Positions 11,087 through 13,442 of a stretch of DNA of 64,000 nucleotides are shown here, piece by piece; the stretch's first letter is position 1; each line of letters starts with the position of its first letter. The notes under the pieces were generated by a model. It was not told the DNA's origin. It worked only from the letters and a program-made list of their open reading frames with translations, and ran no database searches. Source of the stretch: an uncultured Bacilli bacterium (GTDB lineage: Bacteria; Bacillota_I; Bacilli_A; RF39; UBA660); NCBI GenBank assembly GCA_944372425.1, contig CALVZC010000004.1:6522-70521 (forward strand), read 5' to 3'. The translations under genes and the position numbers were made by a program.

Positions 11087-13093
11087 ATGAATAGTAGAAA
11101 TACAAACAAATATTCGAGTAGAGGGGGGCACTTTACTAAAATAAAAGGCTTTACCTTAATAGAGCTATTAGCAGTAATAATAATATTAGGAATATTAATG
11201 ATAATAGCCATACCAGCAGTAACAGAGTATATATCATCATCAAGAAAAAATGCTTATATAACAACAGCAACAAGATATATAGATGGAGTAAGAAATAAAG
11301 TAAATGCAGCAGAAATACCAGTCTATGATATAGAGACAACATATTATATACCCGGAAGTTGTGTGTCAATGGAAAAAGGAGGAAAAAGTCCATATGGAGA
11401 CTGGAAAGAATATTATGTAGTAGTAACATATGATGGAACAGGGTATGACTATTATTGGACAAGTAGAGATGAAAGTAATACAGGAATATATTTAACATAT
11501 CAAGATTTATTAGATGTCGATAGAATAGAGAATAATGTAACAAGTATTTCAACAAGTATAGGAGTAGGAGAAAGAGAAAAGATATTAGTATTAAAGAACA
11601 GTTGTAGTATAAATGATGCGGAAGAGATGTTAGCAACAGTAAATATAGAAGAAAAAGGATATGTAGATGGAAGTCTATCAATGGATATGATAGGAATGCA
11701 TCAAGAAAGTATTTTAAATGGAGCATATCCAAGATTAAAGAATAACTTAATACCAATAACAATAGAAAATGATGGAACAGTAAAGAAAGTAGATACTTCT
11801 ACAAAGTGGTATAGTTATGAAGAAAAAAGATGGGCAAATGCGGTAATATTAAAAGATGAAAGTAAAACATATAACAATGGAGAAGTAATACCAGAAGAAG
11901 AAATAGAGAGTTATTTTGTATGGATACCGAAGTATAGTTATAAGCTATGGGATTTAGGAAACTATAGTAGTACTACAACAATAGATGAAAGTAAAGTACA
12001 TTCAATAGAGATAAGATTTGGAACAACAAATACTACTGATAGTATAGAAGGAGAATGTACAACACCTAATATATCAGGAGAAAGTGGAAACTGTGAAGTA
12101 GGAGATTATATGACTCATCCAGCATTCTTAGCATTCAATACAAATGGACTATGGGTAGGAAAGTTTGAGACAGGATATAGTGGAGCAACAAGCACATCTG
12201 GAGCAAATAAAAATACAACAGAAGTAGATAAAGTAATAGTAAAACCAAATGTCTACAGTTGGAGAAATATACAACCAGCTAATGCCTTTACAGTAAGTTA
12301 CAATTATAAGCGTGAGTTAGAATCTCATATGATGAAGAATACAGAATGGGGAGCAGTAGCCTATTTATCACAATCTATATATGGAATAAGTGACAGTATA
12401 AGAATAAATAATAATTCTAGTCACAAAACAGGATATTCAGCAGTAGAAGAACCGACTGTAGATTGGCCAGAATATAAGGGTTATGGAACAAGTAGTAGTG
12501 TAACACAAGCCTATAATACAACGACAGGATATTTAGCAAGTACAACAGGAAATATAACAGGAGTATATGATATGTCAGGAGGAAGTCATGAATATGTAAT
12601 GGGAGTACAAGTAGACGAAAGTGGATTACCATTATCAGGAAGACATAATATCTATAATTCAGGGTTTAATGGAACATTAGGATGTCCTACATGTGATACG
12701 ACTGGAGATAATCCTGTAGCAGGAGTAGATAGTAGTATAACAAGTATAACAAATGGTATAAACTTACCTAGTAGTAAATATTATGATAGTTATAAAGTAA
12801 ACAGTAATGGAAATAGAGCAAATAGGATATTAGGAGATGCAACAGGAGAGATGGGACCATTTGGGACTATTCAAACAACAGGAACAGCAGTAGAGTGTGG
12901 AGAAACAGGAATATGTAATAGACCAATAGGTTCATGGTATAATGATAACTCTTCGTTTGTTTACTCTAGCAGCCCTTGGTTCAGCCGTGGGGGCAGCTAT
13001 AACTCCGGTTCTGGGGCTGGTGCGTTCTATTTCAACGGCAACCGCGGGCCTGCTATCAGCGTCATTTCTTTCCGCTTGGTCTTGTGCATATAG
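11087..13093 (+). CDS. DGR target protein: prepilin-type N-terminal cleavage/methylation domain protein with C-terminal variable (C-type-lectin/FGE-like) region
   Basis: The N-terminus MNSRNTNKYSSRGGHFTKIKG|FTLIELLAVIIILGILMIIAIP is a canonical type IV prepilin signal (G-1, F+1, E+5, hydrophobic helix). The C-terminal ...SPWFSRGGSYNSGSGAGAFYFNGNRGPAISVISFRLVLCI is encoded by the VR. Confidence 0.92.
   Translation: MNSRNTNKYSSRGGHFTKIKGFTLIELLAVIIILGILMIIAIPAVTEYISSSRKNAYITTATRYIDGVRNKVNAAEIPVYDIETTYYIPGSCVSMEKGGKSPYGDWKEYYVVVTYDGTGYDYYWTSRDESNTGIYLTYQDLLDVDRIENNVTSISTSIGVGEREKILVLKNSCSINDAEEMLATVNIEEKGYVDGSLSMDMIGMHQESILNGAYPRLKNNLIPITIENDGTVKKVDTSTKWYSYEEKRWANAVILKDESKTYNNGEVIPEEEIESYFVWIPKYSYKLWDLGNYSSTTTIDESKVHSIEIRFGTTNTTDSIEGECTTPNISGESGNCEVGDYMTHPAFLAFNTNGLWVGKFETGYSGATSTSGANKNTTEVDKVIVKPNVYSWRNIQPANAFTVSYNYKRELESHMMKNTEWGAVAYLSQSIYGISDSIRINNNSSHKTGYSAVEEPTVDWPEYKGYGTSSSVTQAYNTTTGYLASTTGNITGVYDMSGGSHEYVMGVQVDESGLPLSGRHNIYNSGFNGTLGCPTCDTTGDNPVAGVDSSITSITNGINLPSSKYYDSYKVNSNGNRANRILGDATGEMGPFGTIQTTGTAVECGETGICNRPIGSWYNDNSSFVYSSSPWFSRGGSYNSGSGAGAFYFNGNRGPAISVISFRLVLCI
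12949..13090 (+). repeat. DGR variable repeat (VR)
   Basis: 142 bp, collinear with 13301-13442 (offset 352, no indels). There are 15 mismatches, all at template adenines. It forms a GC-rich island in an AT-rich gene. The last 28 bp (13063-13090) are identical to the TR (IMH-like). Confidence 0.95.
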
Positions 13094-13113
13094 TTTTTCC
13101 ACATGTGGAAAAA
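13094..13113. repeat. perfect 20-bp palindrome immediately 3' of VR/stop codon (candidate DGR target-site cruciform)
   Basis: TTTTTCCACA|TGTGGAAAAA starts one nt after the TAG stop (13091-13093). No U-run follows, so it is not a typical terminator. Confidence 0.6.
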
Positions 13114-13193
13114 CTTAACCCTGATCTTTGTGGTTTAATAAATAATCGAAGCATATAGATAGACAGATTTAATAGTAGAAGAGTATTTCAATT

Positions 13194-13229
13194 ATGCCAA
13201 TTGCTCCCTTTTTGGCAATTGGCATTTTT
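13194..13229 (+). terminator. rho-independent terminator of the target gene
   Basis: An 11-bp perfect stem ATGCCAATTGC/GCAATTGGCAT with a 10-nt loop, followed by TTTTT. Confidence 0.65.
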
Positions 13230-13300
13230 AAATTTTGGCATTATTATATTATATATATGATGTAGGGATTAGATTGATAACATTTTTGTTTCTTTTATTT

Positions 13301-13442
13301 CTCTTCGTTTGTTAACTCTAGCAACCCTTGGTTCAACCGTGGGGGCAACTATAACAACGGTTCTGGAGCTGGTGCGTTCTATTTCAACAACAACAACGGG
13401 CATGCTAACAGCAACATTTCTTTCCGCTTGGTCTTGTGCATA
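13301..13442 (+). repeat. DGR template repeat (TR)
   Basis: Non-coding copy of the VR. It carries 12 in-frame-equivalent AAC codons. All 15 VR/TR differences fall on its adenines. Confidence 0.95.

Follow-up and report, generated by a model that had tools for sequence, protein, structure and literature searches.

A 64,000-nucleotide stretch of DNA from an uncultured Bacilli bacterium (GenBank assembly GCA_944372425.1, contig CALVZC010000004.1, positions 6,522 to 70,521 of the forward strand; the whole stretch is called the window here) was analysed following an earlier note that had been made from its letters alone. We conclude with high confidence that the window holds an intact, chromosomally fixed diversity-generating retroelement (DGR) of the Msl–Avd–reverse transcriptase (RT) type, Architecture D, belonging to a gut member of the Bacilli with about 25% G+C and acting by the mechanism proposed below. 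DGRs have been catalogued by the tens of thousands, and the present element is one of a known kind and ordinary as such; it is a clear and well-preserved natural example. All coordinates are positions in the window, and all parts of the DGR lie on the + strand.

Adenine-specific divergence of the template and variable repeats

The variable repeat (VR, 12949–13090) forms the last 47 codons of the target gene and ends directly before the TAG stop codon, and the noncoding template repeat (TR, 13301–13442) contains 33 adenines and 12 in-frame AAC codons. On realignment the two copies matched without a gap over 142 nt with 15 mismatches, exactly at the 15 coordinates that the earlier note had given, and the identity stopped abruptly at both ends. 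Each mismatch has A in the TR and G, T or C in the VR; the recount agreed with the note in that 15 of the 33 template adenines and none of the 109 non-adenine template positions differ (p = 1.5e-11, hypergeometric/Fisher). Its codon account was likewise correct: nine of the 12 AAC codons are altered in the VR, to TAC, AGC (three times), TCC, GGC, CGC, ATC and GTC, and, besides these, CAT has become CCT, and GGA has become GGG without a change of amino acid. Both copies are, as noted, G+C-rich islands, with 46% (TR) and 54% (VR) compared with 25% for the window. The capacity of the TR amounts to 4^33 = 7.4e19 DNA variants, or about 2.7e18 peptide variants over 19 codons. A scan of both strands of the 64-kb window, including sub-windows, found no additional VR copy.

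One part of the earlier description has to be amended. The final 28 bp (13063–13090), which the note had taken for an invariant segment resembling an initiation of mutagenic homing (IMH) element, are identical in the two copies in the window, but they are adenine-poor and lie within the converted tract. These 28 nt hold only three adenines (TR positions 116, 140 and 142), and at two of them, 116 and 140, the VRs of sister strains carry substitutions; the lack of change here reflects the paucity of adenine and not a position beyond the converted tract.

Transfer from TR to VR in five syntenic strains

Five syntenic strains were compared, namely that of the window and those of loci L001, L081, L082 and L084, all of which carry the DGR between recD2/yrrC and a two-component system/response regulator; L001 is a closed 1.31-Mb metagenome-assembled genome (MAG) named 'uncultured Bacilli', and its RT is 94% identical to that of the window. 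The TR adenines are conserved at 33 of 33 positions in all five strains, and the TRs differ from each other only at positions 6 and 133, both of them non-adenine, with each of the four possible combinations of alleles represented. At both positions the VR of every strain has the allele of its own TR, and this agreement indicates that retrohoming has taken place since the five strains diverged. The VR is different in each strain: pairs of VRs differ at 17–24 of the 33 adenine sites compared with 1–4 of the 109 non-adenine sites, and 31 of the 33 adenine sites vary in one strain or more. Among the proteins that cluster with the target at 90% identity, hypervariability is seen at the residues that correspond to TR asparagines templated by AAC. 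The near-identical TRs, the VRs differing at adenine sites and the hypervariability of the cluster bear out the claim of the earlier note that the element has been active.

Identity between the strains is uneven along the locus. The body of the target gene 5' of the VR (12048–12948) is 89.6–92.1% identical at the nucleotide level to that of L001, L081, L082 and L084, and the DGR cassette 3' of the VR (13443–14342) is 97.9–99.6% identical to that of the same four strains; the lower identity of the target body suggests that the target gene as a whole, and not the VR alone, evolves faster or recombines.

The RT, avd and msl genes

The DGR-type RT and avd that the note had placed just downstream on the same strand were both found, and the RT is intact. 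The RT gene (14361–15389, 342 residues) matches RVT_1, and its product can be aligned over its full extent with the structure of bRT from Bordetella phage BPP-1 (PDB entry 8ub7; residues 13–333, E = 2.7e-45), in which alignment both the motif IGNYTSQ, of the DGR-typical form IGxxxSQ, and the catalytic YMDD are visible. The accessory variability determinant gene avd (14020–14376, 118 residues) matches Pfam bAvd with 64.5 bits (gathering threshold 40). Between the TR and avd lies a third gene that, like the structured RNA and the pilin-type N-terminus of the target, was not noticed in the first reading, msl (13647–14033, 128 residues), which encodes a MutS-like accessory protein matching Pfam MutS_I with 37.5 bits (gathering threshold 20.6). 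The presence of a small MutS-like gene with avd and the lack of HRDC place the element in Architecture D, which Wu et al. (2018; PMC5758913) defined by Msl, a protein that they found in 16 of 372 DGRs; Msl has also been reported from Bacteroides DGRs (bioRxiv 10.1101/2024.11.15.621889). Relatives of the element occur by the hundreds in gut MAGs. At least 540 loci with relatives of the RT were confirmed in species-representative genomes, and the locus counts given here refer to the best 80 of them, which represent a large Bacilli/Clostridia clade: the arrangement msl–avd–RT is found in 78 of the 80 and adenine-biased TR/VR pairs in 46 of the 80.

Msl consists of MutS domain I and a C-terminal segment that weakly resembles the C-terminal helix–turn–helix (HTH) of MutS. 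A profile of 25 Msl proteins (alignment A4) matched MutS domain I in the PDB with an E value of 1.8e-8, and the C-terminal 35 residues aligned weakly with MutS residues 825–858 and with the isolated C-terminal domain 3zlj_C (E = 0.6). The protein is not a full MutS: its 128 residues lack the connector, core, clamp and ATPase domains, and Phe-Tyr-Ile stands in place of the Phe-X-Glu motif. The phenylalanine equivalent to Phe36 of Escherichia coli MutS (Phe27 of Msl) is kept in 72 of 73 Msl orthologues, whereas the position of Glu38 is occupied by isoleucine in 63 of the 73, and KCGFP replaces MAGIP. Knockout of mutS raised retrohoming 5–10-fold in a Bacteroides DGR (bioRxiv 10.1101/2024.11.15.621889), and because of this effect a role of Msl as a shield from repair is proposed: by analogy, Msl most likely keeps repair away by binding either the VR heteroduplex with its dense mismatches or MutS itself.

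Cis elements and the template RNA

A perfect hairpin, GTTTTTCCA CATG TGGAAAAAC (13093–13114; −12.4 kcal/mol in RNAfold), stands 3 nt past the VR. Its position is shared by about 30 relatives with unrelated hairpin sequences, none of which has a hairpin after the TR, and it is a candidate target-recognition element. Further downstream, an intrinsic-terminator-like hairpin with a 12-bp stem and a T-run (13194–13225) closes the target transcript; it is followed by a promoter-like site, TTGGCA-17-TATTAT (13219–13247; 10 of 12 positions matching), from which the TR RNA would start about 10 nt before the 5' arm described below, and the unit of the TR RNA is closed, shortly upstream of msl, by a second intrinsic-terminator-like hairpin with a T-run (13603–13628). 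The search gave three terminator-like sites where 0.7 were expected, and hairpins of the type AGCAGTAC...GTACTGCT occupy the terminator position before msl in many relatives. The TR RNA appears to be a small transcription unit of its own.

Within this unit the 5' arm GGGATTAGATT (13265–13275), 25 nt upstream of the TR, forms an 11-bp long-range helix with the 3' arm AATCTAATTCC (13516–13526), which directly follows an invariant UAGA (13512–13515); the helix is supported by covariation across 28 loci with 17 distinct linker sequences, in that at least 10 of the 11 pairs form with the upstream region of the same locus in 27 of 28 loci compared with 5.8% of cross-locus controls. The spacer between TR and terminator contains three hairpins. 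P1 (13477–13498; 8 bp, loop UUACGG) is the first stem-loop after the TR, with compensatory changes at seven of eight pairs; P2 (13528–13541; 5 bp, GUAA tetraloop) has such changes at four of five pairs and 90% of cells paired, and is followed by an A-rich unpaired tract (13542–13555); P3 (13556–13595) is a long stem that has bulges, conserved internal loops (AGUA...GAA), compensatory changes at 10 of 11 pairs and 93% of cells paired. When 27 spacers are aligned, the three hairpins have 84% of their cells paired compared with 41–47% with slid partners, the covariation score is 0.60 compared with 0.10–0.16 in slid controls, and compensatory changes occur at 23 of 26 pairs. In addition, CTATGATA (13443–13450), directly after the TR, can pair with TATCATAG (13507–13514) and so enclose P1; this pairing averages 7.3 of 8 pairs within a locus compared with 6.4 across loci, and at least seven pairs form in 90% compared with 46%. 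It is a candidate for a duplex of the template:primer type, weakly supported in this AT-rich context and suggestive only.

In the ribonucleoprotein of BPP-1 the 'cPRT Stop' consists of an 11-bp avd:Sp duplex, a short stem-loop and A-minor adenosines, and there is also an Avd-binding stem-loop (bioRxiv 10.1101/2023.10.23.563531); Handa et al. predicted such RNA elements in 207 of 278 DGRs (same source). The long-range helix followed by P2 and the A-rich tract matches this 'cPRT Stop', and P1 is a candidate Avd-binding stem-loop; the fold is shown by covariation, and the roles would follow by analogy. Weinberg et al. (2017; PMC5737381) linked RT-10 to the spacer of BPP-1 and raised the possibility that further RT motifs are parts of DGRs. 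The window spacer aligns over the full model of one of these, Rfam RT-14 (RF02921), a model that leaves out the long-range pairing with sequence upstream of the TR. Beside the TR of a relative in the Clostridia (L072), RT-14 scores 51.7 bits, above its gathering score, and a covariance model (R1) built from the spacer alignment found one match in the window (85 bits) and also matched L072 at the RT-14 site.

The target protein

The target gene (11087–13093) has a GAAGG ribosome-binding site 8 nt upstream and encodes 668 residues, laid out as a prepilin leader G/FTLIE (the solidus marks the cleavage site) with a hydrophobic helix (residues 18–42), an N-terminal part of about 195 residues that was not modelled, and a C-terminal region (residues 196–668). 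The N-terminus, MNSRNTNKYSSRGGHFTKIKG/FTLIELLAVIIILGILMIIAIP, has the form of a class III (prepilin) signal with the cleavage context KIKG/FTLIELLAVIIILGILMIIAIP, having Gly at −1, Phe at +1, Glu at +5 and a hydrophobic α1-N; it scores 25.9 bits with Pfam N_methyl (gathering threshold 21.2) and 25.3 with TIGR02532 (cut-off 16.3). Pfam and NCBIfam gave nothing on the target besides this N-terminal methylation motif.

The C-terminal region was modelled by AlphaFold2 (AF2) from a diverse alignment (A3) with a predicted local distance difference test (pLDDT) score of 95.7 and a predicted TM-score of 0.95. A Foldseek search of the PDB with this model returned three DGR variable proteins first, TaqVP (PDB entry 5vf4; E = 4e-9, probability 1.0), Mtd (1yu0; 1e-3) and TvpA (2y3c; 0.07), and then FGE, EgtB and PvdO (FGE-type matches, E = 0.3–1); with TM-scores of 0.24–0.46 and sequence identities of 10–16%, the match is at the domain level. 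A profile search of the PDB also found 5vf4 weakly (E = 0.9), aligning the FGE-like motifs HMMKNTEWGAVAYL and GIYDMSGGAWEYV; the motifs of this kind in the target read ..NTEWGAVAYL.., ..GIYDMSGGAWEYV.., ..RGGS.. and ..SFRLVL, and Pfam FGE-sulfatase (PF03781) did not match the target at E ≤ 0.1. According to the model, the target ends in a C-type-lectin/FGE-like domain that carries the VR. The target is probably a surface- or pilus-displayed ligand-binding protein, and a pilus-displayed lectin is plausible; by analogy with Mtd and TvpA, a changed C-type-lectin surface would change ligand specificity.

The family of the target comprises 3532 representative clusters at E < 1e-3. A prepilin N-terminus is present in 31 of 150 family representatives, and many others have SipW-type signal anchors on the same C-terminal domain; among representatives P0160–P0307 the SipW/TasA-type anchors end in ..SYA[LYIW][FW].. 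A few giant members of the family (3713 and 4516 residues) contain 9–14 copies of part of the lectin-like domain. Two paralogues (P0003 and P0005) are 83–85% identical to the target, have the prepilin N-terminus and are encoded elsewhere in the chromosome, where a response regulator and a D-Ala-D-Ala carboxypeptidase flank them and no DGR genes are nearby (L083:3001–4962 and L085:3001–4956). They were considered as trans targets of the window TR and rejected as current ones; the 3' end of the paralogue in L085 matches the TR at 89 of the 109 non-adenine sites, and that in L083 is below the threshold.

Evidence against the proposed reading and alternative explanations

Several results weigh against the reading of the window as an intact Msl–Avd–RT element with a pilin-like target. 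The Avd protein scores 68.7 with NCBIfam DivGenRetAVD, under the equivalog cut-off of 80. There is no G+C-only IMH and no difference of the IMH/IMH* kind, since the identical 3' part of the VR and TR runs through to the final base. The 204-nt spacer (motif 13465–13597) scores 39.5 bits with RT-14 (E = 5e-4 to 5e-3), below the gathering threshold of 48.1; the window RNA is related to RT-14 but lies below the threshold for curated membership. Promoter-like sites are not enriched in the AT-rich DNA of the window, and the site upstream of the TR is weak evidence alone. An AF2 model of the full-length target from 49 close homologues reached a pLDDT of only 47 and was discarded, which leaves the pilin module unmodelled. 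Three near-identical pairs of targets in the cluster (more than 98.5% body identity) have identical VRs, and these pairs give no sign of very recent VR turnover. Finally, neither a platform protein (T2SSF/PilC) nor a prepilin peptidase (A24/PilD) was present among the window open reading frames (ORFs) scanned.

The last of these points bears on how the target is displayed. The window encodes a GspE/PilB-family assembly ATPase of 508 residues (54429–55955, − strand; T2SSE, E = 1.6e-123), which is divergent from two prepilin-like genes of 194 and 374 residues (56090–56674 and 56653–57777, both + strand) with the N-termini NKG/FVLVE and NKA/FTVIE; a further pilin-like gene of 322 residues (30497–31465) has NKG/FAFST, without the glutamate at +5. 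It is possible that the ATPase and the prepilin-like genes, which are 41 kb away and outside the DGR, are the machinery for the target. The ATPase has a Lys/Glu-rich C-terminal tail of about 120 residues. Lectin-like domains were suspected in the other pilin-like proteins of the window from their C-terminal sequences, and were rejected when hhalign found no homology to the target. The target might instead be no pilus subunit at all, its prepilin-like N-terminus being an interchangeable membrane anchor or export signal of a surface lectin. This view, which we regard as a real though not the favoured possibility, agrees with the minority of family representatives that have a prepilin N-terminus and the many with 'SYAxF' anchors of the SipW type, with the 41 kb between the target and the only assembly ATPase of the window, with PilC and PilD not having been seen in the window, and with a length of 668 residues, which is very large for a pilin. 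It is opposed by the G/FTLIE signal, which is above both curated thresholds, by the presence in the same window of the GspE/PilB ATPase and two or three other prepilin-like proteins, and by precedent, since modular pilins with grafted adhesin modules are known in monoderms (PMC8179133). In surveys of DGRs a 'GspG-type pilin' domain among targets is a rare table entry (PMC11661182).

Another explanation would be a fossil DGR, the repeats recording past retrohoming by an element that is now silent or inactive in the lineage, with a VR that is effectively frozen. Many natural DGRs are tightly repressed, and the identical VRs in near-identical strains speak for such a fossil; because of these three pairs, the strain comparison speaks for retrohoming after divergence but not for activity today. 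Against this explanation stand the three intact ORFs, whose dN/dS ratios relative to L081 (msl 0.18, avd 0.05, RT 0.22) point to purifying selection on all three DGR genes, the retention of 33 of 33 TR adenines and of all RNA elements in five strains, and the five different VRs in these strains, and we consider it improbable.

Most gut DGRs are viral (Roux 2021; PMC8144416) and the RT has distant viral relatives, so that a prophage-borne DGR diversifying a phage receptor-binding protein has to be weighed against a chromosomal one. The upstream flank consists of thrS, mraZ, rsmH, a penicillin-binding protein gene, def and recD2/yrrC, and the downstream flank of two-component systems, with yqfD, ybeY, dgkA, cdd, era, recO, rpoD, a murE-like gene, lepA and others farther along. 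The same arrangement is found in the four other strains, no phage genes were seen, and viral relatives of the RT reach at most 44% identity compared with 54–94% in cellular MAGs. Given the housekeeping flanks, the synteny and the low viral RT identity, the element is therefore regarded as a vertically inherited chromosomal DGR and not as prophage cargo, and a phage origin of this kind is very unlikely.

An ordinary segmental duplication or gene conversion with an adenine bias arising by chance or compositional drift has nothing in its favour beyond the existence of the repeat, and is refuted by the p value for 15 of 15 mismatches at adenine sites and by the strain comparison, the same pattern recurring independently in five strains and 46 related loci next to dedicated RT, Avd and Msl genes, which makes its probability negligible.

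Proposed mechanism

For the intact chromosomal DGR the following course is proposed. A short stand-alone RNA, covering roughly 13255–13630, would be transcribed, and in it the 142-nt TR would be looped out by the 11-bp helix (13265–13275 with 13516–13526), followed by P1–P3, a fold that is shown by covariation and whose parts are given roles by analogy. As expected from homology, RT–Avd would cis-prime on the TR RNA and synthesize cDNA with misincorporation opposite the 33 adenines. The cDNA would then take the place of the VR in the 3' end of the target gene, guided by homology and, by analogy, by the flanking hairpin that marks the VR and is absent from the TR, and Msl, which has the mismatch-stacking phenylalanine but isoleucine for Glu38 of MutS, may shield the VR heteroduplex from mismatch repair. 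As a predicted outcome, 19 codons would vary in a protein of 668 residues that has a type IV prepilin N-terminus, the varying codons lying in its C-type-lectin-fold tip.

Tandem TR arrays in relatives

The most unusual feature met in the analysis belongs to related loci and not to the window. In several relatives the msl–avd–RT genes are adjoined by ORF-free tandem arrays of complete TR cassettes, in which every cassette comprises a 5' arm that is conserved, a variant of the TR and the spacer with its structured RNA (L038:1–4300, L013:3000–6100, L009:2600–5750, L008:2300–4160 and L030:2300–4150; also in L020 and L028). Eleven units, repeating every 370 nt or so, make up the array of L038, and four make up that of L030; the RNA model matched 9–10 times each in L013 and L009 and seven times in L008. 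The units have identical ends, and their hypervariable codons differ, including at non-adenine positions. The VR of L030 (1961–2110) looks like a mosaic of two templates when compared with the TRs at 2303–2451 and 3788–3937: positions 1–104 have no non-adenine mismatch to TR4 and positions 79–150 have none to TR1, whereas there are at least five non-adenine mismatches to any single TR. Such a pattern could have arisen by several partial retrohoming events in succession, with different TRs as templates, or by template switching. It may be, and we suggest this only tentatively, that the window element is the single-template form of a DGR clade able to use several templates. No mention of tandem TR arrays was found in the DGR surveys of Wu (2018) and Roux (2021) or by a keyword search of a library of papers.

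Another relative, L007, has 5 kb without an ORF longer than 91 residues downstream of its RT (6030–11014), with about 20 TR/VR-like segments roughly 200 nt apart that score under the threshold of the RNA model; it is possible that this is a cassette array that has decayed or is of another kind.

Comparison with known systems

The DGR of BPP-1 (mtd–avd–TR–brt) and the window element have in common adenine-specific transfer from TR to VR, an RT that is homologous from end to end, Avd, a VR at the C-terminus of a protein with a C-type-lectin fold, a hairpin just after the VR, a duplex of about 11 bp between sequences upstream and downstream of the TR followed by a short stem-loop and adenosines, and a stem-loop just 3' of the TR. 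The window element is chromosomal, whereas that of BPP-1 is phage-borne; its order is target–TR–msl–avd–RT, and the upstream strand of the duplex is noncoding, whereas in BPP-1 it lies inside avd. It has Msl in addition and lacks the G+C-only IMH and the IMH/IMH* difference, and its target is a pilin-like cell protein in place of a tail fibre. The best structural matches of the C-terminal region, TaqVP, TvpA and Mtd, share 10–16% identity with a target that adds a large N-terminal part and the prepilin leader.

With the other Msl-containing DGRs of Architecture D, those of Legionella and of Bacteroides (Bfr, Bth and Bun), the window element shares a small MutS-domain-I protein next to Avd and RT and the lack of HRDC. 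Msl occurs in 78 of 80 loci in the Bacilli/Clostridia clade of the window, in contrast to 16 of 372 in the set of Wu et al., and the Msl of this clade differs in having Phe-Tyr-Ile for the Phe-X-Glu of MutS and a C-terminus weakly like the MutS oligomerization HTH. The DGRs of type V pilus tip adhesins in Bacteroides (bioRxiv 10.1101/2024.11.15.621889) are likewise found in gut commensals, are chromosomal or carried by integrative and conjugative elements, in some cases include Msl and diversify a pilus-associated adhesin; they belong to another phylum and another target family, and the pilus there is of type V, whereas the signal here is that of a type IV prepilin. The modular type IV pilins of monoderms, such as PilB and PilC of Streptococcus sanguinis, resemble the target in that a large C-terminal module is grafted onto a pilin module with a class III signal peptide; in the window the grafted module is a DGR-diversified lectin fold, in a target whose incorporation into a filament is putative.

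Other features of the window

On the − strand, a primary-sigma-like ORF of 740 residues (39596–41818) has sigma-70 regions 1.2 to 4 ending at residue 423 and a C-terminal extension of about 315 residues with no Pfam match. A partial ABC ATPase of 118 residues (35772–36128) covers profile positions 1–80 of 137, and a partial GGDEF protein of 126 residues (25117–25497) covers positions 67–160 of 161; these short ORFs may be split or degraded genes in a reduced genome.

Conclusions

In conclusion, the five syntenic strains display the transfer from TR to VR directly, in that the VR follows the alleles of its own TR. The occurrence of a BPP-1-like RNA architecture in a distant low-G+C lineage supports the generality of the mechanism, with roles assigned by analogy, and provides a role for RT-14, hitherto an orphan motif of Rfam. 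If it is true that several templates feed one VR, this clade would combine the choice of a cassette with adenine mutagenesis, in a protein perhaps displayed on a type IV pilus. The clade also makes two questions approachable, namely the function of Msl, which is universal there and keeps the mismatch-stacking phenylalanine but not the glutamate, and the possible display of hypervariable lectins on type IV filaments by monoderm gut bacteria.

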